Assembly: GCA_965249725.1 (NCBI GenBank)
Contig: CBDFMQ010000002.1
Span: 2,144,001 to 2,208,000, forward strand
DNA: 64,000 bases
DNA from: Longimicrobiales bacterium
Lineage (GTDB): Bacteria > Gemmatimonadota > Gemmatimonadetes > Longimicrobiales > Gaopeijiaceae
Direction of reading: 5' to 3'
The translations under genes and the position numbers were made by a program. Below, piece by piece: positions 8,037 to 52,771 of the stretch. The first letter of the stretch is position 1; each line of letters begins with the position of its first letter. Under the pieces are notes generated by a model. It saw only the letters and a list, made by a program, of their open reading frames with translations. It ran no database searches and was not told where the DNA came from.

Positions 8037-8043
8037 GAGGCCC

Positions 8044-36654: not shown

Positions 36655-38034
36655 ATGAAGAGGCTCTTCCTATTTCTGACCCTCGCCCTGGCAACGGCGG
36701 CACCACTTCAGGCTCAGCGATCTTTCGAGCCGCCGGACAAGCAGCTCCACAGCCAGCGTCGGGCCAACTTCCTCAACGCCATGGAAGGCGGGATCGGCAT
36801 CATCGTGGCGGCCATCGAAGATCAGAACAGGATCTACGAGTTCTTCGTGGATCACTCGGATCTCCACGACTTCATTTACCTGACCGGACTCGAAGCGGGC
36901 GACGCCTATGGGTCGGCGCTCGTCCTCGCCCCCGACGCCGAGACCTATCGGGAGATCCTCTACACAGCGGGAGATCCGGAGGAGATGGCGGAGCTCACGG
37001 GCATCGAGCACGTCTACCCCTACGAGTTGCTCAACGAGCACCTGTCGGACGCCATCACCGACTACTCTCTCCTTCGCACACATCAGCGAGGAGCCAAGGC
37101 GCTCGCCTCGGATCTGTCCCGCTCCTGGGGGGACGAGAAGGTCACATACTTCAACTACCAGCGCTTCCTGAATCTGGCCGAGACACCCCCCGAACGACTC
37201 GACCTTGCCAACCGACTCCGGTACTTCTCGCCCGAGATCCAGATGAAGGATGCGTCGGACATTCTGAATCGACTGCGGATGATCCACGACGAGGCTTCGA
37301 TCGCGATGCTTCGGAAAGCGTCCGACATCACCGTCCAGGCGTTCATGGAGTCGGCCAAGGCCGTCCGTGAAGAGATGACGACGCAGCAGATCGCATCAAT
37401 CGTCAACTTCACCTTCGAGTACGAACACGCGGCACCTTCCTTCCGCACGAACGTCACCCCTTCGGGCCCGAACCTCGCCCCGCGCGGCCGGGGTGGCAGT
37501 GATTGGCCTATCGGAACCCGCCCAAGGCTGGGTCCGTGGCATGTGAGCGACGGCCAGATGCTCAGCTACGATATCGGCGCGGAGTATGCACACTTCACCG
37601 CCGACTTCGGGCGAACGATTCCGGTCAGCGGCGAGTACACACCCGAGCAGCGACGCATCGCCGAGACCGTGACACGCGTCCAAAAGCAATTGATCGCCGC
37701 CGTCAAGCCCGGCGGAACGTTCGCCGGGAGTCAGGCCCTCAAGGACCGGCTCATGGGCGAGGCCGGGTTACTGGATGTCACGAACACGTACGGCATCAGC
37801 CACTTCGTCGGGATGGAGATCCACGACGTGGGCTCCTACGACATTCCGTGGGAGCCTGGAATGTGCTTCGTCATCGAGTGGCGTGTGAGCCACGAGGACT
37901 GGTCGATCCGTTTCGAGGACGTAATCCTGGTGACGGAAGACGGCCAGGAGTGGCTCACCGGGCACTCTCCCATCGAGCCCGACGAGATCGAAGCGCTCAT
38001 GGCGCAGGAGGGGGTCTGGGAGCGGGGTCGCTAG
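36655..38034 (+). CDS. Exported M24 (Xaa-Pro aminopeptidase-like) metallopeptidase
   Basis: Signal peptide; DFIYLTG, DIGAEY...ADFGRTIP, SHFVGMEIHD, IRFEDVILVT. Confidence 0.88.
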   Translation: MKRLFLFLTLALATAAPLQAQRSFEPPDKQLHSQRRANFLNAMEGGIGIIVAAIEDQNRIYEFFVDHSDLHDFIYLTGLEAGDAYGSALVLAPDAETYREILYTAGDPEEMAELTGIEHVYPYELLNEHLSDAITDYSLLRTHQRGAKALASDLSRSWGDEKVTYFNYQRFLNLAETPPERLDLANRLRYFSPEIQMKDASDILNRLRMIHDEASIAMLRKASDITVQAFMESAKAVREEMTTQQIASIVNFTFEYEHAAPSFRTNVTPSGPNLAPRGRGGSDWPIGTRPRLGPWHVSDGQMLSYDIGAEYAHFTADFGRTIPVSGEYTPEQRRIAETVTRVQKQLIAAVKPGGTFAGSQALKDRLMGEAGLLDVTNTYGISHFVGMEIHDVGSYDIPWEPGMCFVIEWRVSHEDWSIRFEDVILVTEDGQEWLTGHSPIEPDEIEALMAQEGVWERGR

Positions 38035-38195
38035 TGTTCCGTCCCAGAACTTCGTTACGCACCGAGGGTGCTGAGGCGCCATCCTGGCAAGGCACGACGA
38101 CGAGGAATAGCGCCGCTATTTCGAGGAGAAGTAACGCCGCCAGGATGGATGCATCAGTGCCCGAATGCCAACGAAGTTCTGGGACGGGACACTAG
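38031..38195. mobile_element. 165-bp MITE-like inverted-repeat element bounded by CTAG
   Basis: 26-bp terminal inverted repeats (CTAGTGTTCCGTCCCAGAACTTCGTT / AACGAAGTTCTGGGACGGGACACTAG, one mismatch) with nested internal stems; too short to encode a transposase. Confidence 0.75.
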
Positions 38196-38465
38196 GTCAG
38201 CGGAGCAGGTGCCGGGCGATTTCGTCACGAAGTCGCTCGGCACGCCTCCGGAACCTCTTGGTCGCGCTGGACCAAATGGTACGCGCGACCCCCAGCCCGG
38301 CCGTCGCCCCGGCCCCCAAGATGGACACCGTGACCATCATGGATTTTCCCGGCTGTAGGTGCCGGGGACGACCGATGATAGAGCAGTGATACCCCGCCGC
38401 TAACCTCTGTGCACGTCGCGAGCCCCCCTTGGAGGCAGGCGATTCCCAACCACAGAGGAGGACCG

Positions 38466-38648
38466 ATGGAGACTCTGACGCCGGACCGCATGCGGACGCT
38501 GCATGGGATGAAGATCGACGAAGGAGAGGTGTGCGGCCTCATGGTCGGCGCCTTGTCGGGCGCCATCTACTTCAGTTGGACCGTACCCGCCGCATTCATC
38601 TTCATGTTCACGCCGATGGTCTGTGTCCTGGACTACGGTCTCCGGTAG
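38466..38648 (+). CDS. Bacteriocin/RiPP-like precursor peptide 1 (60 aa)
   Basis: AGAGGAGGA RBS; METLTPDRMRTLHGM-KIDEGEVCGLMVGALSGAIYFSWTVPAAFIFMFTPMVCVLDYGLR; double-glycine-type leader spacing; C39 transporter nearby. Confidence 0.72.
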   Translation: METLTPDRMRTLHGMKIDEGEVCGLMVGALSGAIYFSWTVPAAFIFMFTPMVCVLDYGLR

Positions 38649-38692
38649 GCAGAACCGACGCCTTCCGCCCCCCCCATCACTCGGAGGTTCCC

Positions 38693-38869
38693 ATGAGAGC
38701 ACTCACCGTCGACGAAATGGCCGACATCGAAGGGATGAAATTCTGGGCCGGCTTCGGCTGTGGTGCAGGCATCATCGCATCCATCGCGGTGACCGGTACC
38801 CCGGACGTCATCGCCCGGTGGTCCATCTACAGCGGCACGATCGCGGCCTGTGGAGCCGCGTTCTTCTAG
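38693..38869 (+). CDS. Bacteriocin/RiPP-like precursor peptide 2 (58 aa)
   Basis: GGAGG RBS; MRALTVDEMADIEGM-KFWAGFGCGAGIIASIAVTGTPDVIARWSIYSGTIAACGAAFF. Confidence 0.8.
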   Translation: MRALTVDEMADIEGMKFWAGFGCGAGIIASIAVTGTPDVIARWSIYSGTIAACGAAFF

Positions 38870-38876
38870 GGGGTAC

Positions 38877-38905
38877 GGGCTGGGCGTCACCGGGGCGCCC
38901 AGCCC
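38877..38905 (+). promoter_or_regulatory. Stem-loop immediately downstream of the precursor genes
   Basis: GGGCTGGGCG (38877-38886) pairs perfectly with CGCCCAGCCC (38896-38905). Confidence 0.55.
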
Positions 38906-39032
38906 ACCTCGTCTCGGCCCCGGCAACCCGAGGTGCGGCTCCTGCCGGGCCCTCGCCTCGATCACCCGGCGGAAGCTCCTCATCGGGAGTCGTCGTTTCC
39001 TCTGGTCCGTCCGGAATACCATCGAGGGAAAG

Positions 39033-40544
39033 ATGGCTTTAGTCGTCCTGGTGGCAGCCCCGTTCTTGATGCGGAACATGCTGGTGTCCTCCTCGCTGCG
39101 TGCAGCACGCACGAGCCGAGATCTGGCGGACGCCACGATGTTGCTCGCCCATGCGGCCATGGCTGCCGCGCTGATGCTTGCGGTGGTCTCGCGCACTGCC
39201 CGCTCCCTCATAATTGAGAAGGCCCCCGAACCTCTGGCTGTCTACCCTGGTGGCCGACGGGGATTGGCGACGTATCACCTCTGGGGAGAAGTCGCTACGA
39301 CGGGACTCTGGCTCATCGGCTTCTTCTACCTCTTCTACGGTCCCCTGGTGTACGACCTGGCTCCTCGACCGACACTGGCTCTCCCAATGCACTTGATCGC
39401 GCAGGCTTTGGTCTTCTGCGCTTTGGGAGCCCTGGCCTACCGCATCACGCTCTGGACGCTCGAGAGCCGACCGTCCGTCGGCCGGTCGCTCTACTCCTGG
39501 GCAAGCGCCGGAGCCATCCTCGCCTTCCTGGGCATGGCCGCCTCGGCTGCCGTCATCGAGGACCTGCCGAGAGGGGGACTGGAGGGCTCGCGTGCGTGGG
39601 TCAGCGCGGCGGCCGGCGCCTATCCACCCCTTGGCGCCCTGGGCCGATCCGTCAGCAGCTTCCCTAGTGCGGTGACGTGGCTGACCGGGGTCGTGTTGGC
39701 CGGGACCGTCGCCTCGATCACGGCAGTCCCCCTCTCGAGGCGGGTGAGTCCCCTGCTATTGGGAGACCTCGAGGGGCTCCTGCACCCTCGCTTCAAGAGC
39801 GTATTCGGAGGACGGGGCAGAGCCGGCGGCGGAGCGCGCCTCTTCTTCCTCAAGGACCTGTGGCTTCCCGCGGTACGGCATCCGCGACGTGTCTTCACGA
39901 GACACTGGGTTCTCCTGGCCATCGCTCTGACGGGGCCAGTCCTGACGTGGCAGCTGCGCCGCGAGGGCCGCGTGAGTGAGATCGTTGCAGCGGCGGCCCT
40001 GTGGGGTGTGGTGATGGCGGTGCCGTCGCTGGCCGCCTATCTGAACGGCTTGGGCGCACTGGGTCGGGAGGGAGCGGTGTCGGCCTTGATTCGTCCCGTC
40101 CTGCGGCCCGCCGCACTCTGGGGCTGCAAGGTGCAAGCGGTACTGGTGGCCGTCGTTCCCCAAGGCCTCGTTTACGGAGCCATCACCGGATGGTCAGCCA
40201 CGAAGCTGGGGCTGGAACCCGGGCCGCTGGAGGCAGCGGGCGCGGGTGCCCTTGCCGGACTGGTCGCCTCGACGAACGCAGTGGGCCTCGGGTTCCTGAT
40301 TCCCGACTTCCGGCGCAGGAGCTTGCTCACCCCGGGTGCGTCGCGGTCCGCGCGACGCCTCTTCGAGGCCCTCGCAGTCTATGGGATCGCCTCCTGCATC
40401 GCGGTGCGGATCATGACCCGCACGGGCGTGCTTCCTCCAACTCTCTTTCCTGTCAGCGTCGCCACCACGGCGGGTCTGGGTCTGACCCTGGGTGGCATCG
40501 TCACCCTGCTCGCCCTTCGTCGATTTCCCTCGCTGGAGAGTTGA
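39033..40544 (+). CDS. Multi-pass membrane protein, putative ABC exporter permease / immunity
   Basis: Many hydrophobic segments; FFLKD..., REG.....IRP.L....LWGCK permease-like pattern; adjacent to an ABC ATPase. Start uncertain (frame is open from 38850). Confidence 0.65.
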   Translation: MALVVLVAAPFLMRNMLVSSSLRAARTSRDLADATMLLAHAAMAAALMLAVVSRTARSLIIEKAPEPLAVYPGGRRGLATYHLWGEVATTGLWLIGFFYLFYGPLVYDLAPRPTLALPMHLIAQALVFCALGALAYRITLWTLESRPSVGRSLYSWASAGAILAFLGMAASAAVIEDLPRGGLEGSRAWVSAAAGAYPPLGALGRSVSSFPSAVTWLTGVVLAGTVASITAVPLSRRVSPLLLGDLEGLLHPRFKSVFGGRGRAGGGARLFFLKDLWLPAVRHPRRVFTRHWVLLAIALTGPVLTWQLRREGRVSEIVAAAALWGVVMAVPSLAAYLNGLGALGREGAVSALIRPVLRPAALWGCKVQAVLVAVVPQGLVYGAITGWSATKLGLEPGPLEAAGAGALAGLVASTNAVGLGFLIPDFRRRSLLTPGASRSARRLFEALAVYGIASCIAVRIMTRTGVLPPTLFPVSVATTAGLGLTLGGIVTLLALRRFPSLES

Positions 40545-40545
40545 T

Positions 40546-41328
40546 GTGACGGATGGCCCATCAATCTGCATCGACCGCCTCACCAAAAGCTTCGGCGCGA
40601 TCGAAGCTGTCTCCGAGTTGAGCCTCACGGTCGGTACGGGGGAGATCGTCTGCTTCTTGGGGCCCAACGGCGCAGGCAAGACGACGACCATCAACACCGT
40701 CATGGGTCTCAAGAGACCGACCTCCGGCGACGTCTTCATCAACGGCGTGAGCGTCCGCGCGCCGCAGGTGGAATCCGTCCGTAGAAGGATCGGCTTCATG
40801 CCTCAGCAGCCGGTACTCTACGACTATCTCACCGGACGGGAGTTCATCCAGTTCTTCGGCGAGTTGTACGGCACCGACCGGCCACTCGACACGTGGCTCG
40901 AAGAACGCTTCTGCGCGCTCGAGATGAGCCATCACGCGGATCGGCTGATCAGAGACTACTCGGCCGGTATGAAGAAGAAGATCTCGTTCCTGACCGCCCT
41001 GGTCCATCAGCCCGACATCCTGCTGTTCGACGAGCCCACGGGGACTCTCGACGCACTGAGTGCACGCATCGTCAAGGACGAGATGCTCGCGGCCCGTAAA
41101 AGGGGTTCGTTGGTCTTCTTCACCACGCACGTCCTGGAAGTCGCCGAACGCCTTGCGGATCGCATCGCGATCATCCGAAACGGGCGCCTCGTCGCCGATG
41201 GGACGCTGCGCGATTTACGCGCGAGACACGGCCGGGGAGCCGGGGAGTCGCTCGAGAACATCTTCCTCCGTCTCGCCCATCAGGCCGGGACGGAAGGCGG
41301 CGCTGGCACGCGGGGCGCGGGCGGGTGA
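40546..41328 (+). CDS. ABC transporter ATP-binding protein (multidrug/bacteriocin type)
   Basis: GPNGAGKTT, YSAGMKKK, LLFDEPT, TTH; GTG 1 nt after the permease stop. Confidence 0.92.
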   Translation: MTDGPSICIDRLTKSFGAIEAVSELSLTVGTGEIVCFLGPNGAGKTTTINTVMGLKRPTSGDVFINGVSVRAPQVESVRRRIGFMPQQPVLYDYLTGREFIQFFGELYGTDRPLDTWLEERFCALEMSHHADRLIRDYSAGMKKKISFLTALVHQPDILLFDEPTGTLDALSARIVKDEMLAARKRGSLVFFTTHVLEVAERLADRIAIIRNGRLVADGTLRDLRARHGRGAGESLENIFLRLAHQAGTEGGAGTRGAGG

Positions 41329-43466
41329 TCCGATGCTCACTCACTCGGCTGATCCTTAGATGTGCCCGCCGTTTGAACCCGCACCCCGTGGTGCGTCAGT
41401 ATGACCGGGTCGATTGCGGCCCGGCCTGTCTCCTGTCCGTCCTCCGGTTCTACGGAGGAGAGATAGGACTCCCTCGACTGCGATCCTGGTGCGGCACCGA
41501 CGCGAACGGCACGAGCCTACTCGGCCTTCAGAGGGCTGCGACCACCCTCGGATTCGAGGCCCGGGGTGCCAGCGGTACCTTCGAGCAGCTGAGCCAGGAG
41601 CATCTGCCCTGCATCGCTCACGTGGTACAGGAGAAGGCACAACACTACGTCGTCATCTTTGGGGTGCGAGGGCGTCGACTGGAGGTGGGCGACCCCGCGG
41701 CCGGGCTCCGCTGGCTCACACGTGACGAATTCGAGCACATGTGGAGCCATCGAGCGGTGCTGCTCCTCCGGCCGGGCCCGAAGCTCCTTCGCGAACCTCC
41801 ACCGCACTGGTTCAGCTGGGTCCTCTCCCGTATCCGCCACGACTACGGGCTATTGGTGCAATCGGTATTCCTCGGGGTCATCTCCACCGCCCTGGGGCTG
41901 GCTACCGCGGTCGTCGTCCAACGGTTGATCGATGACTTCATCCCACAACACGACGTCGCTCGGATCCTGTGGGCCGGGGGGTTCCTTCTCACGCTCCACG
42001 CGGTGAGGGGGCTCACGGCGTACCTGCGACAGCGCTTCTTGGTAGGGCTCGGGAAGCGGGCCTCCACCGCGATCGCCTCGGAGTTCCTCGAACAGCTCTT
42101 CCGGCTTCCCGCCGGATACTTCGACACGCGAAAGCGCGGCGACGTCATCGCCCGTCTCCAGGACGCCTCGCGGATCCAGAGCGCGGTCCTGGACCTCTTG
42201 GGGAGCACCACCATCGACCTGCTCGTCACCACGCTTTCGATCGCCGCAGTCTTCTACTTCTCACCGCCTTTGGGTTGGATCTCGCTCGTGCTACTGCTCC
42301 CGTGCGCGCTGCTCGCCGGGTCGACCGCGAGGCGGATTCACCGAGAACACGACGCGGCTCTCGGCGCCTACGGGCTTCTGCACGCCTCCTACGTCGATGC
42401 CGTCGACGGAATGGACACCATACGAGGGCTCGGCGTGGGGCGGGTCTTCACGCGGCAGAACCTGGCCCTCTTCGGCCGGTTCCAGACCAGGGTCGAGCGG
42501 CTGGGTCTGACACGTGCCGCAATCGGGTTCCAGGTAGAGAGTTTGAACGGTGCCCTGTTGGCAACGACCCTCACGGTCGGCGCCGTTCAGGTCGTCGCGG
42601 GGAATCTGGGTATCGGGGCCATGATGGCGGCGTATTCGCTGGTAGCGGGCGCTCTGCCGAGCATGCAGCGGGTCATCGAGGGCCTCTTCACGTTCCAGGG
42701 CGGAGGAGCCGCCGCCCAACGACTTCAGGACCTCCTGCTCACTGACCCGGAGAGCAGCGACGGCGTGCTGCCCTTCCGGATGGACGTCGAGTTGAGTCTC
42801 GACGGTGCCGGATTCGAGTGGCCGAACGGGGACTCTGTCCTGAAGGGAGCCCACCTGACCCTGAAGCGCGGTCGGATCGTCGGGGTCAGCGGCGCAAACG
42901 GATCCGGCAAGACCACCCTCGTCCATCTCCTGTCGAGGCGCTATCCGCTCAGGGATGGCCTGCTGAGGGTCGATGAAGTCGATGCATCGAGCATCGACCT
43001 TGAAGCGTACCGGCGCGCGGTGGCCGTCGTCCCGGAGACGGTGAAGATCTTCCATGGCACACTTGGCGAGAACATCGCCCTCGGGGCGATCGGCCTGTGC
43101 GCCCAAGAGCTCGGCCACCGCCTCCGCGATCTCGCGGTGGGCCCGTTCATCAGCCGGTTCAAGGATGGCCTGGAGACGGTACTCGGCGAGGACGGTCGAC
43201 GCCTCTCAGCCGGGGAACGCCAGATGATTGGACTGATACGCGTCCTCCTAGGGCGGCCCTCCGTTCTCATCGTCGACGAAGGCCTGAACGCCCTCGATCC
43301 CCAAACCTATCGGACGGCCGCCCAAGCCCTCTCCGCCCACGCCGAGCGAGGCGCGATTCTGCTCATCTCTCATCACCCGTCGGTGCTGGCGCTCGCCGAT
43401 GAGCGGTTCCGCCTCGAGGGAGGGGCCCTCGCGCCCGTCTCCGAACCCGAGGCCCAGGCGGCGTGA
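41325..43466 (+). CDS. Peptidase-containing ABC transporter (C39 peptidase, TMD, NBD)
   Basis: VRQYDRVDCGPACL (Gln/Cys), QHYVV (His), GDP (Asp); YFDTRKRGD; GANGSGKTT, LSAGERQ, LIVDE. Confidence 0.93.
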   Translation: MIRCSLTRLILRCARRLNPHPVVRQYDRVDCGPACLLSVLRFYGGEIGLPRLRSWCGTDANGTSLLGLQRAATTLGFEARGASGTFEQLSQEHLPCIAHVVQEKAQHYVVIFGVRGRRLEVGDPAAGLRWLTRDEFEHMWSHRAVLLLRPGPKLLREPPPHWFSWVLSRIRHDYGLLVQSVFLGVISTALGLATAVVVQRLIDDFIPQHDVARILWAGGFLLTLHAVRGLTAYLRQRFLVGLGKRASTAIASEFLEQLFRLPAGYFDTRKRGDVIARLQDASRIQSAVLDLLGSTTIDLLVTTLSIAAVFYFSPPLGWISLVLLLPCALLAGSTARRIHREHDAALGAYGLLHASYVDAVDGMDTIRGLGVGRVFTRQNLALFGRFQTRVERLGLTRAAIGFQVESLNGALLATTLTVGAVQVVAGNLGIGAMMAAYSLVAGALPSMQRVIEGLFTFQGGGAAAQRLQDLLLTDPESSDGVLPFRMDVELSLDGAGFEWPNGDSVLKGAHLTLKRGRIVGVSGANGSGKTTLVHLLSRRYPLRDGLLRVDEVDASSIDLEAYRRAVAVVPETVKIFHGTLGENIALGAIGLCAQELGHRLRDLAVGPFISRFKDGLETVLGEDGRRLSAGERQMIGLIRVLLGRPSVLIVDEGLNALDPQTYRTAAQALSAHAERGAILLISHHPSVLALADERFRLEGGALAPVSEPEAQAA

Positions 43467-43476
43467 GGCCGCTGGC

Positions 43477-44229
43477 ATGACTACACAGCGCGCCTTTCTG
43501 TTGATCACGCTCGCCTGGTTGGGCGTTACGCTCTACACGAACGAACGGGTTCTCGCTCCCGAGGTCATGGCCGATGTGGTTCAACGCACGACCGGTGTCG
43601 AGACGCCGGTCGACCAACTGGAGCAGCTGCGTAGACAGGGCCGGTGGGCGTACCCGCTGCTTCCCGTGCTTCTCGCCATCCGGGTCGGCGTCGCAGGGCT
43701 GGTGCTGCAGCTCGTAGCGATTCTGATGGCACACCCGCTCCGGTACGTGGAGGCATTCCGTGCGGGTCTCTGGGGATTCGGAGCCGTAACGTATGGCACC
43801 TTCATACGGATGCTGAGGTTGGATCTCCTGCCAGCGGGTTCGCTTACGCGGGCGGAGCTGCTTACGGTGCCCGATTCGCTGGCTGTCCTTCTTCCAGGCC
43901 CTGGGCTCAAACCGGGGCCGGCGACGACCGTCCTTTCGGCCACACTGAGCACACTCACCCTACACGATGCCTTGTGGATCGGAATCGTGACGGCCTGCCT
44001 CATGCGCCTGCCCGGACTCGAAGGTCGGCGGGCCTTCACGATCGCCCTGGTCGCTTGGGGCATTACAGCACTAGCGAGAGTCGGCGCCCAGGTCTTCATG
44101 GCCAGCGTGCTCATGTGCCCCGGACCTCGTTGCTCTAGGCCTCCTTGCCCCCACATCGGTCCTCCCCTTACCGTGCTCGTCCGCCCCAGTCGGCGCTGTC
44201 ACACCCATTGCCAGAGAACCGTGCCATGA
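43477..44229 (+). CDS. Membrane protein (possibly Yip1-like) of the peptide locus
   Basis: About five hydrophobic segments; same strand, 10 bp after the C39 transporter. Confidence 0.6.
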   Translation: MTTQRAFLLITLAWLGVTLYTNERVLAPEVMADVVQRTTGVETPVDQLEQLRRQGRWAYPLLPVLLAIRVGVAGLVLQLVAILMAHPLRYVEAFRAGLWGFGAVTYGTFIRMLRLDLLPAGSLTRAELLTVPDSLAVLLPGPGLKPGPATTVLSATLSTLTLHDALWIGIVTACLMRLPGLEGRRAFTIALVAWGITALARVGAQVFMASVLMCPGPRCSRPPCPHIGPPLTVLVRPSRRCHTHCQRTVP

Positions 44230-44678
44230 GCATCAGAAACGTCGCAGCCTTCGCTCTCCTCGCGCTGGCCACCTTGGCCACCGCCGATCTCTCCGCCCAG
44301 GACCGGACGTACTACGGCGGACGCTCCCCGGCCGACGGGGACAGCGTGACGCCGTTCAGCGGCGCCGTGCAGGTGGGTAACACCCTCTATCTCTCCGGAA
44401 TGCTCGGACTCGAAGGGGGACAGGTGCCCGCTACGGCCGAAGCCGAGGCCCGGAATGTGCTCAACGGCATGCAGAGCGCTCTGGAAGCCGCCGGTATGAC
44501 CATGAACGACCTGGTCATGGTGCAGGTCTACAGCTCGGATGTCTCCGACTACGGCGCGTTCAACAGCGTCTACCGGACCTACTTCACGACCGAATTCCCG
44601 GCCCGGGCGTTCATCGGCGCCGGCACCCTGCTATTCAATGCACGCTTCGAGGTATTAGGAGTCGCGGTCAAACGGTAG
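44226..44678 (+). CDS. RidA/YjgF family protein with an N-terminal signal peptide
   Basis: PFSGAV.VGNTLYLSG, FNSVY..YF, PARAFIG, FEV; signal MSIRNVAAFALLALATLATADLSAQ. Confidence 0.87.
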   Translation: MSIRNVAAFALLALATLATADLSAQDRTYYGGRSPADGDSVTPFSGAVQVGNTLYLSGMLGLEGGQVPATAEAEARNVLNGMQSALEAAGMTMNDLVMVQVYSSDVSDYGAFNSVYRTYFTTEFPARAFIGAGTLLFNARFEVLGVAVKR

Positions 44679-44853
44679 GAACGCTCTAATCCGGACCGGG
44701 TGCCTCCTCGCGAAGGGGCCCTGGACCTCGACGCTCGACATCCCGTGACTCCGAATGCACATTTAATGGCGCAGGGGAGCGACGTTGGGTCCATCTGGGC
44801 CCCAGACATGGTCCGGCGGAGTTCGCACCAGGCCCCTCGCTAGGGGGCACTGG

Positions 44854-46497
44854 ATGGCGAATCTACAGACACGGACCGGCACTCGTATCGGCTCCTGGAG
44901 CGGTCCGACCGACAGCCTGCTCACGACGCCGACGGAGCGGGCGGAGGGTCTGGCGCGAGTGGGCCTCCCTCTCTACGCCGTCGATCACGGCGACACCTTT
45001 GCGTTCTCGCATGTGGGTGCCGCAGAACTCGGCGGCGAGCCCCGGGTCGAGGGCTTTCCCCTCCTCGCCCTGGCCCCCGCCTGCAAGCCCCAAAACCTCG
45101 GATCGGCTGAATTCGCGCGGGACCATGGCGTCCGTTTCTGCTATCTGGCGGGCGCCATGGCGAACGGAATCGCGTCTGTAGAACTCGTCGAGGCCATGGG
45201 GCGGGCGGGAATGCTGTCGTTCTTCGGCGCCGCCGGCCTCGGACCGGACAAGGTGGAGGACGCCATCGACCACATCTCCACACGTCTGGGTGACCTGCCC
45301 TGGGGCTTCAACCTGATTCACAGCCCCTATGAGCCACGGCTCGAGGAAGCCGTAGCCGACCTATATGTGCGGCGGGGCGTGAGTCGAGTATCGGCCTCGG
45401 CCTACATGGATCTCACGCTGCCGCTCGTGCGGTACCGGCTGCATGGGATCCATGCCGATTCATCGGGCCGGGTCGTGACCCCGCACCGGGTGGTCGCTAA
45501 GGTCTCTCGCATCGAGGTTGCCAGGCGGTTCTTCGCGCCGGCACCAGCCAAGATGGTGGCCGAGTTGGTGGCTCGCGGAGACCTGACCGAAGAACAGGCC
45601 CAGATGGCTAATCGCGTCCCGGTCGCGCAGGACCTGACGGTGGAGGCGGACTCCGGCGGCCATACGGACAACCGGCCCGCCATCGCCCTTCTCCCCACGA
45701 TGCTTGCCCTACGCGATCGACTCCAACTCGAGCACGAATACGAGATGCCTCTGCGTGTAGGTGCCGCTGGCGGAATCTCGACGCCGCATTCCGTGGCCGC
45801 CGCGTTCGCGATGGGTGCCGATTACGTGATGACGGGCTCCGTGAATCAGGCGTGCCGAGAGGCCGGCACGTCCGATACGGTGCGCCAAATGCTCGCTGAG
45901 GCGGAGCAGGCGGACGTGACCATGGCTCCGGCCGCGGACATGTTCGAAATGGGCGTCAGGTTGCAGGTCCTCAAGCGTGGGACGATGTTTCCCATGAGGG
46001 CTCACCGCCTTTATGATCTCTATAGAGCCCATGCAGGGCTCGAAGACATCCCCAACGACGAACGGCAGAATCTAGAGCGTACGATTTTCCGTACGTCATT
46101 GGACGAGATCTGGAACGAGACGCGCAGCTTCTGGGAAGCACGTGACCCGGTTCAGGTCGAAAAAGCCGAGCGCGATCCGAAACATCGGATGGCGCTGGTC
46201 TTTCGGTGGTATCTGGGGATGTCTTCGCGGTGGGCGAACCGCGGTGAACCGGGTCGTGAGATGGACTATCAGGTGTGGTGCGGCCCGGCGATGGGAGCCT
46301 TCAACGAATGGGTAAGGGGCAGCGTGCTCGAGCCCTGGGAGAATCGTCGCGCGGTAAGCGCGGCGCACAACATGTTGCACGGTGCTGCGGTCATTGGACG
46401 AGCGAACGCTCTACGCAGCCAGGGAGTGGAGTTGCCGGCCACCGATGTGGACGTCCGCCCCCGAGAAACAGATGAACTCGAGGAATTGCTGTCTTGA
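44854..46497 (+). CDS. pfaD: PUFA synthase enoyl reductase PfaD
   Basis: GAMANGIAS, FGAAGL, SASAYM, AKVSRIEVA, EADSGGHTDNRP, MAPAADMFEMGV, DYQVWCGPAMGAFN. Confidence 0.95.
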   Translation: MANLQTRTGTRIGSWSGPTDSLLTTPTERAEGLARVGLPLYAVDHGDTFAFSHVGAAELGGEPRVEGFPLLALAPACKPQNLGSAEFARDHGVRFCYLAGAMANGIASVELVEAMGRAGMLSFFGAAGLGPDKVEDAIDHISTRLGDLPWGFNLIHSPYEPRLEEAVADLYVRRGVSRVSASAYMDLTLPLVRYRLHGIHADSSGRVVTPHRVVAKVSRIEVARRFFAPAPAKMVAELVARGDLTEEQAQMANRVPVAQDLTVEADSGGHTDNRPAIALLPTMLALRDRLQLEHEYEMPLRVGAAGGISTPHSVAAAFAMGADYVMTGSVNQACREAGTSDTVRQMLAEAEQADVTMAPAADMFEMGVRLQVLKRGTMFPMRAHRLYDLYRAHAGLEDIPNDERQNLERTIFRTSLDEIWNETRSFWEARDPVQVEKAERDPKHRMALVFRWYLGMSSRWANRGEPGREMDYQVWCGPAMGAFNEWVRGSVLEPWENRRAVSAAHNMLHGAAVIGRANALRSQGVELPATDVDVRPRETDELEELLS

Positions 46498-49400
46498 GCG
46501 ATCGGAATGAGAATCGGGCCGCGGCCCAGTCACCCATAGCCATCGTCGGCATCGCCTGCGTATTCCCCAAGGCGGGCGGCCTGCATGACTACTGGGCCAA
46601 TGTGCGGAACGGTGTTGACGCCATTACCGAGATCCCCGGGGCGCATTGGAAGACGTCGGAGTACTACGACGCCGACCCAAAGCGGCCGGACATGACGTAT
46701 GGCCGCCGCGGCGGCTTCATCGATCCCATCGACTTCGAGCCCATGGCCTTCGGCATCCCGCCGCGGGACCTCGAAGCCACGGACAGCACCCAACTTCTCG
46801 GCCTGCACGTGGCCCGTCAGGCTCTCGACGACGCCGGCTACGGCGCCGAGGGTCGCGAGTTCGATCGCGAGAAGACGAGCGTCATCCTAGGCGTGAGCGG
46901 TACGCTGCCGTTGGTGATTCCTCTAGGCGCCCGCCTCGGACACCCCATCTGGCGCAAAGCGCTGGAAGATGCCGGGGTCGACCCCGAGACGACCGAAGAC
47001 GTCATCGAGCGTATCGGCGAAGGCTACGTCCCGTGGCAGGAGAACTCCTTCCCCGGACTCCTCGCCAACGTCGTGGCCGGCCGCATCGCGAATCGCCTCG
47101 ACCTTCACGGGACCAACTGCATCGTTGATGCGGCCTGCGCTTCGTCGCTCAGCGCGGTTCATCTCGCGGCTCTCGAGCTCGAGTCCGGCCGGTCGGACAT
47201 GGTCCTGAGCGGTGGCCTGGACACGTTCAACGACATCTTCATGTACATGTGCTTCTCCAAGACGCCGGCGCTGTCGGCCACGGGGAATGCTCGCCCGTTC
47301 AATAATGAGGCCGACGGCACGATTCTGGGTGAGGGCGTCGGCATGCTGGTACTCAAGCGGTTGGGGGATGCGGAACGAGACGGCGACCGCATCTATGCCG
47401 TGATCAAGGGCATCGGATCTTCTTCCGATGGCAAAGGACAGGCCGTATACGCGCCAGCCCCCGAGGGTCAGGCACGGGCGTTGCGATCGGCATACGAGAA
47501 CGCCGGCATCCGGCCCGACACCGTCGAGCTCGTCGAGGGTCACGGCACGGGCACCCGTGTCGGTGACGCCACCGAAGCGAAGGGCCTGACGACCGTCTAC
47601 CGAGAGGCCAACCCTGAGGGCACGTGGTGCGCCCTCGGATCCGTAAAGTCGATGATCGGTCACACCAAGGCCGCGGCGGGAGCGGCGGGCCTGATCAAGA
47701 CGGCTATGGCGCTCCACCACAAGACTCTTCCCCCAACCATCAAAGTGGAGAGCCCCAACGAGGCAGTGGCCACAGGGGAGACCCCGTTCTACGTGAACAC
47801 CGAGAAGCGCCCCTGGCTGCCCAAGAGCGCGCACCCGCGCCGCGCCGGCGTGAGCGCATTCGGGTTCGGGGGCAGCAACTTCCACTGCGTGGTGGAGGAG
47901 TACGAGTCGAACGCCACGGAGGTCGATTGGGACGGCCGCGATCAGCTGATCGCCTTCTCAGCCGCCGATAGGGAGGCCCTCGCAGCGCAGCTCGAGGAGT
48001 TCGAGGCGGAGGGCGACTGGTCTGACATCCGGGGACGGGCCGCCGAGAGCCGGGTCCGCTTCGACGTGTCGGACGAGATAAGGCTGCTTCTTGTCGCCGA
48101 CCGGGACGGGACCCCCGTCGCCGATCTGATCGGGATGGCGCTCTCGCAGTTGAAGAACGAACGAGCGTCGTGGACGATGCCCCAGGGCATCTACTTCGGG
48201 TCCGGGGCCGCCAAGGGCAAATGGGCGGCGTGCTTCCCTGGACAGGGCGCCCAATACGTCGGAATGCTCCGCGAACTGGCGTGCCGCTTCCCTGCTGCTG
48301 CCGACGCCTTGGCGGCTTCGGACGAAGTCACGCCGGGGCTTGCCGACCGGGTCTATCCGCATCCGGCCTTCGACGACGCCACTCGATCGCAGCAGGAGGA
48401 CGCGCTCCGTGCCACGGAGACCGCCCAGCCCGCCATCGGCGCGGTCAGTCTGGCCGCTCTCCGAGTGCTCGAGCAGTTCGGTCTCAAGCCCGATGCTACG
48501 TGCGGCCACAGCTACGGTGAACTCGTAGCCCTGTGCGCCGCAGGACGCCTCCGGCCCATGGAGCTGTACCAACTGTCGCGGCGCCGTGGTGAGCTCATGG
48601 CGATCGGGGACGGAGACCACGGCTCGATGCTGGCCGTGGCGGCAGAACTGGAGTGGGTCAAACAGTTCTTGCGGACCCATGACCTGGACTTGGTCGTGGC
48701 GAACCACAACGCGCCGGAGCAGGCCGTTCTTTCCGGGATCACGTACGAAATCGAGCGCGCCCAGGATCTCTTGTCCAAAGAGGGCGTGAGAGTAAAGCGC
48801 CTCGCCGTAGCCGCTGCTTTCCACAGCAGCCTCGTGGCCCAGGCGGGTGCGCCGTTCGCCGAGAGCCTCACGAGCATCGACGTGACGGGCAGCGACGTGA
48901 CGGTGTACGCCAACGCCACGGGCGCCGCCTATCCGGAGCGCTCGGCCGACGCCCGCGAGCTACTGGCGAGCCAGCTGACGTCGCCCGTGGAGTTCGTCGG
49001 GTGCGTGAAGTCGATGTTCGAGGATGGCGTGCGGACCTTCGTGGAGGTGGGCCCTGGGCGTCGCCTCTCGGCCCTCATCGACGAGATCCTGGCCGGAGAG
49101 GACATTTCCACCGTGGCCATCGATGCTTCCTCCGGCCGCCGAGCCGGGCTGGTGGACCTTGCCCGAACGCTGGCCCAGGTGGCCGCGGAAGGGCATCCTG
49201 TGGCCCTGGATCGGTGGGATGATGGAGCCCTCGAGGCCTGGCAGCACGAGATCGCTCGCGGCAAGCCGACAATGACCGTTCCCATTTCTGGTGTGAACCA
49301 CGTGGACCCAAGACCGAAGCGGCCGCCGAGAGCGGCTGTGCCGACTAGGGCGCCCTCGTCCACATCGGATCCACAACTGTTGGCCGAGGCCATGCGCGCG

Positions 49401-52400
49401 AGTCAGGCGAGCCTCCAAGCGCTGGTGCGGCTCCAGGAGCAGACGGCGGACGTACACCGCCGATTCCTCGAGTCTCAGGAGCGGACCATTCAGGCCATCG
49501 CAAGACAGCAGGGACTGTTGCCAGAGGCGTCGATCCCACCGGCCATGCCGGCTGCGGTGGCGGCTCCCGTTGTGATGCCGGAACCCGTTCTGCTCCAGAC
49601 GCCCGCGGTGCCTGCTGAGCCTGCACCTGTTGAGCCTGCACCTGCCGGGCCTGCATCTGCTCAGCCGACGTCCGTTGAGTCCGCACCTGCGCCCGAGTCG
49701 GACGCCCCCGTGCCCGGCATCGCTGCGGCGCTCCTTTCGGTCGTGTCCGAGAAGACCGGGTATCCCGAAGAGATGCTCGAGCTTTCCATGGGACTCGACG
49801 CGGATCTGGGCATCGACTCGATCAAGCGGGTTGAGATCCTGTCCGCCCTCCAGGAGCGGCTTCCGGGCGCACCGGTCATCACACCCGAGCACTTGGGCGA
49901 AATCCAGACGCTCGGACAGATCGTCGAATTCCTGGGCGGGTCTGCCTCCGAAGCGGACGGACCGTCGGTGGACGCCGGCAACGGTGGGGTCGAAGCGACG
50001 CCCGCAGCCGAGTCGACCACCGCCAGCATAGCTGAGCCGGAAGCAACGGTGGCCGGCAATGGCGCGGCCGACACTGAGACCAACGGAACCGCCGATGCGC
50101 CACGGATCGCGGAGGTCCTGCTCGCGGTGGTCGCGGACAAGACGGGATATCCCGTCGACATGCTCGATGTGTCGATGAATCTGGACGCGGACCTGGGTAT
50201 CGACTCGATCAAGCGGGTCGAGATCCTGGCCGCACTGCAGGAAGCGCTCCCGGAGGCTCCGGTCGTGGCTCCGGACCAACTCGGCGAACTGCGTACGCTC
50301 AGCCAGATCGTGGACGTGCTCGCGCAGGGGGGCGAGGCCGAGCCCACGCCCTCGCTGGCCGTTGCAGACCTGCCGGTTCAGACCGCCGCGACCGTCGCGA
50401 CCGGTGTCGAGCGTCTCGTACCGACGCTTCGGCCCCTCGGCGCGATCGGAGATCCGATCGGGCTGCCGGCAGGATCCAAGATCTGGGTGACCAAGAGTGG
50501 CGACGTCCTCTCGGGCCAGATCGTCGAGGAACTCAGTGCACAGGGCTACTCCGCCGAAGAGGTGGAACTGACCGACCCGACGCAGGACCCACCCGATGAC
50601 GTAGCCGGCCTGATCGTGGTCGTACCTCCCCGGGTCACCGACGAGGACATCCTCTTCGGCTTCGGGCGTGTGCGGGCCATGGCCCCCGTCCTTCGTCGCG
50701 CAGCGCTGCAGGGCGGTGCCCTCCTGTGCAGCGTGACTTGTCTCGGCGGCGGCTTCGCCCTCGAAGCGGCTCCCCCCGAAGATGTGGACCCGACGGGCGG
50801 CGCTTGGGGTGGCATGACCAAGACGGCCGCAGCGGAATGGACCGAGGTCGACTGCAAGTGCATCGACGTGGACCCCAACCGCATCGACCTCGCGTCGGAC
50901 GTAGTCAAGTACGCCCTCTCGGAGGGGCCGGTTGAAATCGGCCTGGGGAGCAACGGGCCAGTCACGGTGGTCCTCGAACCACAGCCGGTCGAGCCTGCGG
51001 CACACGCGGCCCTGGGATCCGACGACGTGGTGTTGATCACCGGTGGGGCCCGGGGTGTGACCGCAGAGGTAGCAGTAGCCATGGCCGAGGCGGGACAGCC
51101 ACGGCTCATCCTCATGGGCCGCAGCGCCGAGCCGACCAGTGAGCCCGACTGGCTCATCGGCCTCGACGGAGAGGCGGACATCAAGCGCGCCATCGTGGCC
51201 CAGGCGGGTCCGGGCGTCAGCCCCCAAGAGGTGCAAGCGGAGTTCAACCGCATCCAGGCCAGCCGGGAGATCCTGCGAAACCTCGCCCGGATCTCGGCGG
51301 CAGGTTCCGAGGTCGTGTATTCGTCTGTGGATGTACGTGAGCCCGAAGCCGTACGTGCCCGCCTCGAACCGCTGATCGAGGCGTATGGACCGATCACTGG
51401 GCTCGTGCATGGAGCCGGTGTTCTGGCCGACCGCAACATCGAAGACAAGAGCGACGAGGATTTCGCTTTCGTCTATGACACCAAAGTGGGTGGATTGCGC
51501 TCCGTGCTCGCTGCGCTGGAGGACGCTCCGCTGAAGACGATGGTGATGTTCTCCTCGTCGACAGCCCGCTTCGGGCGACGCGGGCAATCGGATTACGCCG
51601 CGGCCAACGAGGTGCTGAACAAGGTGGCGCAGGTCGAAGCCGCCCGCCGGGAAGGCTGTAGAGTGGTCTCGGTAAACTGGGGCCCGTGGGATGGTGGCAT
51701 GGTGACCCCGGCCCTGAAGGACATGTTCTCCGCCGAGGGCATCGAAGTGATCGGCATGGAGAGCGGAGCCGCCTACCTGCTCGACGAGATCGCGTGCGAC
51801 GGACCCGCCGAGGTGCTCATTCTCGGGGCAGGGTCACAGCTGCCCACCGAGAAGTACGCGTCGGTGGAAGCCACCAACAGCGCCGCGCCGGACGAGTTGC
51901 CGGTGGTCTTCGAGCGGACGATCACTACCGACACCCACGAGTTCATGGCGTCCCACGTCCTGGACGGTCATGCCGTGCTCCCGGCCGCGATGACGTTGGA
52001 ATGGCTCGCCCACAGTGCTCTCCACGGGAATCCGGGACTGCGTTTCGTCGGCGTGGACGACTTCCGCGTCTTCAAGGGCGTGCTCGTTCAGTCACAGGAG
52101 TCCGTGCAGGTACGCGTTTGTGCCGACGCGGCTCGCCGACGTGGAGACGAGTTCGTCGTGACCGCGGAGCTCTGCAGCGGTGGCAGCAATGGCCGCCGGG
52201 TGCTCCACGCCAGAGCCGAGATCGTCTTGGCGGCGAGGCAGCCCGACGCGGTAACGCCCAACGCCTCCAAGGACCTTCCGGCGCTCAAGCAGTCGATCGA
52301 AAGCATTTATGCCGAGACACTCTTCCACGGACCGGCAATGCGGGGCCTGGTCGACGTGGAGAGCTGTGGTGACTCGGGTCTCGTGGCTCGCTGCCGGGTC

Positions 52401-52766
52401 GCTCCGCCTCCCCGGGACTGGATGCAGGAGCCGGTGCGCAATCGGTGGATCGCCGATCCCCTCGTGCTCGATAGTGGACTCCAGGCCATGATCGTCTGGA
52501 CGTCCGACCGGGTCGGCGAAGCCTCTCTGCCCTCGCGATTGACGCGGTATCGGCAGTTCGTCCCCGCCTTCCCCGATGATGGGGCGCGCATCGTCATCAG
52601 CGTGCGTGACCGCACGGAGGCCCGAGTGGTGTCCGACATCGACTGGATCGGTGTCGATGGACGCCTGCTCGCGCGCCTCGAAGGGTACGAGTCGGTCGTG
52701 GACTCCTCGCTCAGCAAGGCGTTCCGCCAGAACAGCCTCGACAAGAGCGCGTCGACGAAGGCGTAG
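46494..52766 (+). CDS. pfaA: PUFA synthase PfaA-like (KS-MAT-ACPx2-KR-DH)
   Basis: DAACASS, HGTGT, GHTKAAAG, FPGQG, GHSYGE, AFHS, LDADLGIDSIKRVEIL twice, TGGARGVT, DYAAANE, HVLDGHAVLP; TTG overlaps the pfaD stop. Confidence 0.92.
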   Translation: MSDRNENRAAAQSPIAIVGIACVFPKAGGLHDYWANVRNGVDAITEIPGAHWKTSEYYDADPKRPDMTYGRRGGFIDPIDFEPMAFGIPPRDLEATDSTQLLGLHVARQALDDAGYGAEGREFDREKTSVILGVSGTLPLVIPLGARLGHPIWRKALEDAGVDPETTEDVIERIGEGYVPWQENSFPGLLANVVAGRIANRLDLHGTNCIVDAACASSLSAVHLAALELESGRSDMVLSGGLDTFNDIFMYMCFSKTPALSATGNARPFNNEADGTILGEGVGMLVLKRLGDAERDGDRIYAVIKGIGSSSDGKGQAVYAPAPEGQARALRSAYENAGIRPDTVELVEGHGTGTRVGDATEAKGLTTVYREANPEGTWCALGSVKSMIGHTKAAAGAAGLIKTAMALHHKTLPPTIKVESPNEAVATGETPFYVNTEKRPWLPKSAHPRRAGVSAFGFGGSNFHCVVEEYESNATEVDWDGRDQLIAFSAADREALAAQLEEFEAEGDWSDIRGRAAESRVRFDVSDEIRLLLVADRDGTPVADLIGMALSQLKNERASWTMPQGIYFGSGAAKGKWAACFPGQGAQYVGMLRELACRFPAAADALAASDEVTPGLADRVYPHPAFDDATRSQQEDALRATETAQPAIGAVSLAALRVLEQFGLKPDATCGHSYGELVALCAAGRLRPMELYQLSRRRGELMAIGDGDHGSMLAVAAELEWVKQFLRTHDLDLVVANHNAPEQAVLSGITYEIERAQDLLSKEGVRVKRLAVAAAFHSSLVAQAGAPFAESLTSIDVTGSDVTVYANATGAAYPERSADARELLASQLTSPVEFVGCVKSMFEDGVRTFVEVGPGRRLSALIDEILAGEDISTVAIDASSGRRAGLVDLARTLAQVAAEGHPVALDRWDDGALEAWQHEIARGKPTMTVPISGVNHVDPRPKRPPRAAVPTRAPSSTSDPQLLAEAMRASQASLQALVRLQEQTADVHRRFLESQERTIQAIARQQGLLPEASIPPAMPAAVAAPVVMPEPVLLQTPAVPAEPAPVEPAPAGPASAQPTSVESAPAPESDAPVPGIAAALLSVVSEKTGYPEEMLELSMGLDADLGIDSIKRVEILSALQERLPGAPVITPEHLGEIQTLGQIVEFLGGSASEADGPSVDAGNGGVEATPAAESTTASIAEPEATVAGNGAADTETNGTADAPRIAEVLLAVVADKTGYPVDMLDVSMNLDADLGIDSIKRVEILAALQEALPEAPVVAPDQLGELRTLSQIVDVLAQGGEAEPTPSLAVADLPVQTAATVATGVERLVPTLRPLGAIGDPIGLPAGSKIWVTKSGDVLSGQIVEELSAQGYSAEEVELTDPTQDPPDDVAGLIVVVPPRVTDEDILFGFGRVRAMAPVLRRAALQGGALLCSVTCLGGGFALEAAPPEDVDPTGGAWGGMTKTAAAEWTEVDCKCIDVDPNRIDLASDVVKYALSEGPVEIGLGSNGPVTVVLEPQPVEPAAHAALGSDDVVLITGGARGVTAEVAVAMAEAGQPRLILMGRSAEPTSEPDWLIGLDGEADIKRAIVAQAGPGVSPQEVQAEFNRIQASREILRNLARISAAGSEVVYSSVDVREPEAVRARLEPLIEAYGPITGLVHGAGVLADRNIEDKSDEDFAFVYDTKVGGLRSVLAALEDAPLKTMVMFSSSTARFGRRGQSDYAAANEVLNKVAQVEAARREGCRVVSVNWGPWDGGMVTPALKDMFSAEGIEVIGMESGAAYLLDEIACDGPAEVLILGAGSQLPTEKYASVEATNSAAPDELPVVFERTITTDTHEFMASHVLDGHAVLPAAMTLEWLAHSALHGNPGLRFVGVDDFRVFKGVLVQSQESVQVRVCADAARRRGDEFVVTAELCSGGSNGRRVLHARAEIVLAARQPDAVTPNASKDLPALKQSIESIYAETLFHGPAMRGLVDVESCGDSGLVARCRVAPPPRDWMQEPVRNRWIADPLVLDSGLQAMIVWTSDRVGEASLPSRLTRYRQFVPAFPDDGARIVISVRDRTEARVVSDIDWIGVDGRLLARLEGYESVVDSSLSKAFRQNSLDKSASTKA
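49611..49685 (+). repeat. Degenerate 15-bp tandem repeat (five units) encoding the PAEPA/PVEPA/PAGPA linker before ACP1
   Basis: cctgctgagcctgca, cctgttgagcctgca, cctgccgggcctgca, ... Confidence 0.65.
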
Positions 52767-52771
52767 CCGCT

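Follow-up and report, generated by a model that had tools for sequence, protein, structure and literature searches.

The window analysed here, a stretch of 64,000 nucleotides of Longimicrobiales DNA, encodes what is probably a two-peptide system resembling class II bacteriocins, whose PCAT (an N-terminal C39 peptidase, an ABC membrane domain and an ATPase in a single chain) would cut both precursors after a Gly-X pair in the canonical double-glycine register, here after Met15. Comparison with homologous precursors indicates that Gly-Met is one of the states taken by a Gly-X motif common to the family, in which X is G, A, S, R, E, M, T, V, L, Q, I or D. The Gly-Met pair singled out in the original prediction is a real feature and a conserved one, and the point that emerges from the sequence comparisons is wider than the one first made.

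Precursor genes and leaders

Two precursor genes lie in tandem on the forward strand. Precursor 1 (38466..38648, 60 aa) has its leader at 38466-38510, with Gly14 encoded at 38505-38507 and Met15 at 38508-38510, and precursor 2 (38693..38869, 58 aa) has its leader at 38693-38737, with Gly14 at 38732-38734 and Met15 at 38735-38737. Ribosome-binding sites are present 4 nt ahead of both ATG codons (AGGAGG at 38456-38461 and GGAGGT at 38683-38688) and no match to a sigma-70 promoter was found in 38000-39100. A 165-bp element with 26-nt terminal inverted repeats (96% complementary) is located at 38031-38195, between an M24 peptidase gene and the precursors, and a second full copy of it was not found in the genome.

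Each leader comprises 15 residues, METLTPDRMRTLHGM in peptide 1 and MRALTVDEMADIEGM in peptide 2. As originally predicted, both carry L4 at −12, M9 at −7, L or I12 at −4, G14 at −2 and M15 at −1, an exact register, and both continue with Lys. In the accessible text of three papers leaders of this kind are stated to end in GG, GA or GS (PMC10885120, PMC10233263, PMC6363468); the two window peptides have the hydrophobic residues at −12, −7 and −4 and the glycine at −2 of a double-glycine leader and lack the G, A or S at −1. A position-weight matrix of residues 2-14, which is blind to −1 and was built from 173 homologous leaders with the window peptides excluded, gave these peptides 29.9 and 22.4 bits and ranks 1 and 2 among the 38,592 ORFs of 30-130 aa in the genome that start with ATG. 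The next-best ORF scored 8.5 bits, and no further leader-bearing ORF was found among these 38,592.

The predicted cores are hydrophobic (GRAVY about 1.0 for both), that of peptide 1 being 45 aa long with Cys23, Cys53 and three Gly-xxx-Gly/Ala motifs, and that of peptide 2 being a 43-aa helical hairpin with Cys23 and Cys53. An AlphaFold2 single-chain model of precursor 2 (mean pLDDT 81, residues 1-10 only 64) has a helix at 6-12, corresponding to −10 to −4, a break at 13-14 and a helical hairpin at 15-33/39-57. As modelled, the first helix matches the two-turn leader helix at −10 to −4 that is described for CtA and the LahT substrate in the available part of PMC6959990, and the core helix, which begins at Met15, would have to unwind for cleavage. 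When this model was compared with the PDB by Foldseek no match at E <= 0.001 was obtained, and neither precursor matched a family in Pfam or NCBIfam. By their resemblance to known bacteriocins both peptides are probably antibacterial.

Operon organisation and the C39 peptidase

The precursors lead a run of overlapping forward-strand genes encoding a membrane protein, an ABC ATPase, the PCAT and a Yip1-like protein. The multi-pass membrane protein (38850..40544), the start codon of which is uncertain as homologs align from residue 8-42 onward, had no match in Pfam or NCBIfam; its hydrophobicity and position suggest that it is probably the permease partner of the adjoining ATPase. This stand-alone ABC ATPase (40492..41328; PF00005, E 2.9e-28; best NCBIfam matches under their cut-offs) possibly serves in self-protection or in an accessory transporter. 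The Yip1-like membrane protein (43477..44118, start inferred) had no match in Pfam and was assigned by an Atlas look-alike at 0.95, in a cluster with PF04893 Yip1 in 54% of its members. Its reading frame probably ends at 44118 rather than at 44229, where the TGC codon of the assembly would take it, given that contigs of 4/4 sequencing runs have TGA at 44116-44118 (C>A at 44118).

The PCAT (41325..43466, 713 aa) matches PF03412 (1.5e-32), PF00664 and PF00005 and has all three PCAT domains in one chain. Its C39 peptidase spans aa 21-150 (41385-41774), and Q25 (41397), C31 (41415), H107 (41643) and D123 (41691) align with Q15, C21, H99 and D115 of PCAT1 (E 6e-27). The catalytic Cys-His-Asp and the oxyanion Gln are thus all present, as they are not in a C39-like dead domain, and in the ATPase the Walker A, signature, Walker B and H-loop motifs are intact. 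No second C39 domain was detected in the genome (96% complete), and the linked, catalytically intact enzyme assumed in the original prediction is therefore there. Given that this C39 domain is the sole one and that no other leader-bearing ORF was found, the Gly-Met peptides are the only visible substrates of a conserved protease.

No membrane fusion protein gene was found in the operon or its flanks. Genes for an M1 and an M24 aminopeptidase are located directly upstream of the operon; the genes directly downstream (44145-59821) encode RidA, an enoyl reductase of the PfaD-like type and a large polyketide synthase of the PUFA type, and the PfaD gene is a conserved neighbour at many orthologous loci.

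Agreement with independent contigs and conservation of Gly-Met

The window sequence was checked against contigs of four sequencing runs from four studies, in which the stretch is covered by several pieces, none spanning the whole. Both Met15 codons and Gly14 of peptide 1 were unchanged, and the single change listed in a Gly-Met codon across the four runs was a synonymous one in Gly14 of peptide 2, in a sister allele. An assembly error as the source of Gly-Met was ruled out by this agreement. All four runs differed from the assembly at 38673 and by one extra C at 38667, both intergenic. The sister allele of precursor 2 (38670-38852; contigs of X4, X6 and X8) was found alongside in three of the four runs and has 18 differences, roughly as many as G001; Gly-Met is unchanged in it, and in X4 and X6 its reading frame is interrupted by a stop at codon 13.

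The Gly-Met pair is present in 6/6 precursors of three species of the genus (G000, G001 and G002) and in peptide 2 of G059, and in the sister genus the −1 residues of peptides 1 and 2 are A/M, S/I and S/T. It was retained across dS values of 0.37-1.24. The dN/dS ratios (Nei-Gojobori, against G001, G002, G059, G330 and G332; dS 0.37-1.41, short genes and near saturation) ranged from 0.04 to 0.28 in peptide 1 and, over four pairs, from 0.15 to 0.34 in peptide 2, and stood at 0.15-0.16 in the C39 domain; the peptides and the protease are under purifying selection. Gene conversion between the two leaders is not supported as the source of the shared Met, only about 8 nt being shared and the flanking codons being different.

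That the locus is decaying, and Gly-Met a disabling mutation, is very improbable. Related loci do break: a deletion in L022 (G002; 6913-8630) has removed about 1.2 kb including the PCAT ATPase domain, another in L040 (1747-3030) has removed most of the permease, ATPase and C39 domain, the precursor genes being kept in both cases, and frameshifts, which may be assembly errors, occur at the related loci of several assemblies, to which the stop codon of the sister allele in two of the four runs can be added. In G332 peptide 2 has an ATA start and Ser-Thr at −2/−1. Loss of such loci is common and does not track Gly-Met. In the window, however, all reading frames are open with no coding indel in the four studies, the Met is identical in both peptides of three species, and the purifying selection on both peptides and the protease has largely refuted decay already. 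The original prediction had named homologs uniformly carrying GG as a sign of decay, and this was not what the homologs carry.

Position −1 in homologous precursors

A single-sequence search with precursor 2 returned only itself and profiles were needed. The peptide 2 profile had matches in 20 of the 401 genomes of the order (18 of the 256 others in the family); a match in G192 (E 9.7e-4) was discarded because no cluster genes were present at the locus. Most other loci have the same layout of peptides, membrane protein, ATPase, PCAT and Yip1-like protein, although it is only partial within the fetched stretch at L070 and L077, and the precursor pair is retained in most loci. After removal of homologs that were truncated, had an offset start or carried an extra N-terminal signal (8 of 77 peptide-1 clusters and 18 of 131 distinct peptide-2 proteins), 69 and 113 remained. 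The columns at −7 and −12 served to select in-register homologs, which makes their own counts circular; those at −2, −4 and −1 were unfiltered. Exactly two core cysteines were present in 65/69 peptide-1 and 106/110 peptide-2 homologs shorter than 72 aa.

Glycine at column 14 (−2) is nearly fixed, with 67/69 peptide-1 and 108/113 peptide-2 homologs carrying it. Column 15 (−1), which the original prediction had proposed to survey, was A in 39, S in 17, G in 8, M in 4 and L in 1 of the 69 peptide-1 homologs, so that 64/69 have G, A or S. Among the 113 peptide-2 homologs there were ten residue types (G 47, R 21, E 21, T 6, S 6, M 4, A 4, V 2, L 1 and Q 1), with G, A or S in 57/113 and, where Gly14 is present, a different residue in 54/108. 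The genome loci add I and D to the residues seen, and at L072 a GA and a GR precursor stand within one locus. On FastTree trees that omit column 15, from which only rough parsimony counts can be taken with such short peptides, column 15 underwent 16 changes in peptide 1, no more than 4 of them to a residue other than G, A or S, and 33 in peptide 2, of which 21 crossed the G/A/S boundary.

Two features of the alignments tie Met15 to the second glycine. In 35 peptide-2 homologs the pattern G/A14-X-Y-F/L-W/L was found with X being G in 15, E in 11, M in 4, T in 3, V in 1 and L in 1, and this fixed distance from Gly14 to Phe-Trp indicates that Met directly replaces the second glycine. Column 15 of peptide 1 follows the G/A/S rule nearly everywhere, which identifies it as P1. 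The Lys at +1 of both window peptides is incidental, since the residue that follows GM or GI in orthologous precursors is W, R, M, S or G.

Some of the homologs depart from this scheme. Five peptide-2 homologs (P0087, P0110, P0116, P0119 and P0128) have a hydrophobic, signal-peptide-like N-terminus before a leader remnant ending in GG, AG or GT, a sequence type that possibly reflects Sec export followed by periplasmic trimming. At L079 (G390; 1830-2570) three tandem precursors were found, one a peptide-2-type duplicate, all with GG.

Register of the predicted cleavage site

The original prediction left two options for the C39 domain, acceptance of a bulky Met at P1 or a cut one residue earlier, after HG/EG. 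With the canonical cut between residues 15 and 16, position −4 is L, I, V, M or T in 69/69 peptide-1 and 96/113 peptide-2 homologs. With the alternative cut between 14 and 15, from which the cores would start with Met, Gly would be at −2 in 0/69 and 14/113 and L, I, V or M at −7 in 4/69 and 2/113, a register that by these counts would fit no known recognition rule and that would leave the G/A/S restriction of column 15 in peptide 1 unexplained. The earlier cut would account for a near-invariant G14 followed by a variable residue, as P1' often is, and the accessible text on LahT150 describes tolerance of varied residues after the cleavage site (PMC6363468); register shifts of PCATs also exist, according to the part of PMC12457901 available. 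A sub-clade of peptide 2 with Gly13-Gly14-Glu15 (10/113; P0035, P0041, P0045, P0049, P0052, P0053, P0055, P0058, P0063 and P0072), mostly with Arg or Lys at −4, speaks for it as well, and in that sub-clade the cut may be shifted by one residue. Against it also stands the aromatic residue after the catalytic His, which is kept (Y108; F in PCAT1). In papain geometry we take such a residue to close S2 to anything but Gly, including the side chains of His, Glu and Asp. The HG/EG cut is on balance distinctly improbable, and of the two options acceptance of a bulky P1 residue is favoured.

A second alternative is that the leader is bound by the C39 domain and is not cut, or only very poorly, so that the peptides would be exported or placed in the membrane still carrying their leader, or be trimmed by another protease, while −1, having lost its importance, would drift. 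Residue −1 of peptide 2 changes as often as unconstrained leader positions do, and the usual replacements are R and E, whose codons can be reached from those of glycine by a single base change. The available part of PMC6959990 describes a very narrow cleft in characterised PCATs, and according to the accessible text of PMC12457901 a charged residue at −1 was not tolerated by the C39 enzymes known earlier. The asymmetry between a peptide 1 that keeps G/A/S and a peptide 2 whose −1 is nearly free could mean that peptide 2 need not be cut. However, Gly at −2, which matters for cleavage, is nearly fixed, Met is held at −1 over near-saturated synonymous divergence with no drift, and the catalytic Q, C, H and D are kept in 7/7 C39 domains of the Met clade with a dN/dS of 0.15 and no other substrate found. 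Absence of cleavage is less favoured because it would leave, in the window genus, a conserved and catalytically intact protease without a visible substrate, and we regard it as unlikely. The upstream M1 and M24 aminopeptidase genes are candidates for trimming by another protease, but these neighbours are missing at the G332 locus L026 and at the more distant loci searched, and two-step trimming by them was rejected as unsupported.

A third alternative, that Met15 serves as an additional start codon from which leaderless peptides would arise, is suggested by the position of both ATG codons exactly at the core boundary. It is extremely improbable: no well-spaced ribosome-binding site precedes either Met15 codon while strong ones precede Met1, and close orthologs have Ala, Ser, Ile, Val, Thr or Leu instead of Met. 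Two other placements of the cut were rejected. Internal GA sites (C23-G24-A25 in peptide 2; G28-A29 and G32-A33 in peptide 1) would split the conserved Cys pair and their Ala is unconserved, and an OrgT-like −9/−14 register would place Lys16 at −2.

The canonical cut after Met15 remains the probable one, and the following sequence of events is proposed. The leader helix (−10 to −4) would dock into the C39 domain through L−12, M−7 and L/I−4, Gly−2 would thread the narrow cleft, and Cys31 would cut after Met15, releasing hydrophobic peptides of 45 and 43 residues with one disulfide each, which the transporter would move across the inner membrane. Such a C39 family would need only the first glycine and have an S1 site tolerant of long side chains, and Met would be the −1 state fixed in both peptides of the genus. 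Once exported, the peptides would probably act jointly on membranes; an operon that has no fusion-protein gene would imply release to the periplasm or an unlinked partner.

Features of the C39 domains

Q25, C31, H107 and D123 were present in 23/23 aligned cognate C39 domains, and the domains of the Met-bearing genera formed one branch (support 90/86, not starred). A105-Q106, before the catalytic His, was found in 7/7 domains of this Met branch and, as a pair, in 0/16 of the other cognate domains. V29, two residues before the catalytic Cys, was found in 16/16 domains of the Met branch and a neighbouring group, and the groups of these 16 domains include some substrates with M, I, L, T or R at −1. 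In papain numbering V29 and A105-Q106 presumably border S1. Together with Y108 they are candidates for mutagenesis and not evidence of co-evolution, as kin share residues.

Comparison with known systems

According to the accessible text of PMC12457901, all PCATs characterised until 2025 cut after GG, GA or GS, and OrgT156, which cleaves after Gly-Lys in a shifted register, was presented in 2025 as the first exception; it is the one published precedent that we found for C39 cleavage after a bulky P1 residue. No report of a Gly-Met leader in a double-glycine, C39 or bacteriocin context was found in the literature searched, mostly the running text of open-access papers; leader alignments in figures and supplements could include GM-type leaders, and the locus type is not described in the available part of a Gemmatimonadota survey (PMC11316326). 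The unusual specificity that had been predicted is thus upheld as an unusual property, one of relaxed P1 in a Gly-X family rather than of specificity for Met, and one with a Gly-Lys precedent. With the glycocin PCATs OrgT and ThgT, as far as the accessible text describes them (PMC12457901), the present system shares a PCAT C39 domain and a substrate with Gly at −2 and a long side chain at −1. It differs in having hydrophobic residues at the canonical −4/−7/−12 instead of the shifted −9/−14 of OrgT, in encoding no modifying enzyme whereas OrgT substrates are glycosylated and from Bacillota, and in a −1 that varies over about twelve residue types in one family.

The bacteroidetocins, as described in the accessible text of PMC6671954, resemble the present system in their Gram-negative host, a leader of 15-16 aa, a Cys-containing core of 42-48 aa and a PCAT together with a multi-pass membrane protein, with no membrane fusion protein among four genes; Bd-A and Bd-B also have Lys at +1. 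They are cut after GG (by MS, two shown), and each of their regions encodes a single peptide, in most cases with four Cys, along with a thiol oxidoreductase. The present operon encodes a pair of distinct peptides, each with two Cys, has an ABC ATPase/permease pair in addition and lacks an oxidoreductase. The GM site, the two peptides, the missing oxidoreductase and the Longimicrobiales host place the system outside the bacteroidetocins, a separation drawn from their description and not from sequence. Whether bacteroidetocins are released to the periplasm or through an unlinked partner is left open in the same text (PMC6671954).

Class II microcins share the 15-aa leader and differ in a GG or GA end, in export by a PCAT with a membrane fusion protein and TolC, and in cores of 60-90 aa, longer than the 43-45 aa here, as far as the accessible parts of PMC12219008 and PMC10233263 go. 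The window leaders match the published microcin patterns (R or [KEQI], x, [IL], x9, G, [GAS]) at all but the last position. Export by a PCAT with a membrane fusion protein, which defines the microcin pathway, does not apply, no fusion-protein gene being present in the operon or flanks.

Class IIb two-peptide bacteriocins have tandem hydrophobic peptides, GxxxG-like motifs and double-glycine-type leaders. The window peptides share all of these with the lactobin A/cerein 7B/Blp type (PF10439), and their two adjacent genes with GxxxG-type motifs lie beside a PCAT gene. They differ in a Gram-negative host and in the absence of a match to PF10439 (E <= 0.1) or another curated family, PF10439 Bacteriocin_IIc clusters among the Atlas look-alikes of precursor 2 at 0.91 being a lead only; synergy of the two peptides would be by analogy. 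From its gene content, the system would work like a class IIb or microcin-type PCAT pathway and be neither a bacteroidetocin nor a microcin.

Discussion

The wide variation at −1 among relatives points to a processing enzyme with much looser demands than almost all of those studied so far. About twelve −1 residues occur on near-identical leaders with cognate enzymes, a natural series in which determinants of S1 are directly testable. A requirement for G, A or S at −1 hides peptides of this family from genome mining: the published microcin patterns match 44/113 peptide-2 homologs, and 89/113 when the last residue is freed, and both window peptides are missed. C39 domains serve as leader-removal tools, as the available text of PMC10885120 describes, and a P1-tolerant one would be useful in this respect.

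A bolder reading, which we hold only tentatively and somewhat short of probable, is that the PCATs of an entire Gemmatimonadota clade act as 'single-glycine' proteases, which would cleave Gly-X in the canonical register whatever X is (Met, Leu, Ile, Arg, Glu, Thr and others), and that the window genus has taken the further step of selecting Met in both substrates together with the A105-Q106 changes in its enzyme. If this is true, the GG/GA/GS rule would be broken without a register shift, the family would represent an unmined class of two-peptide antimicrobials, and its C39 domain would be a leader protease of wider use than LahT150.
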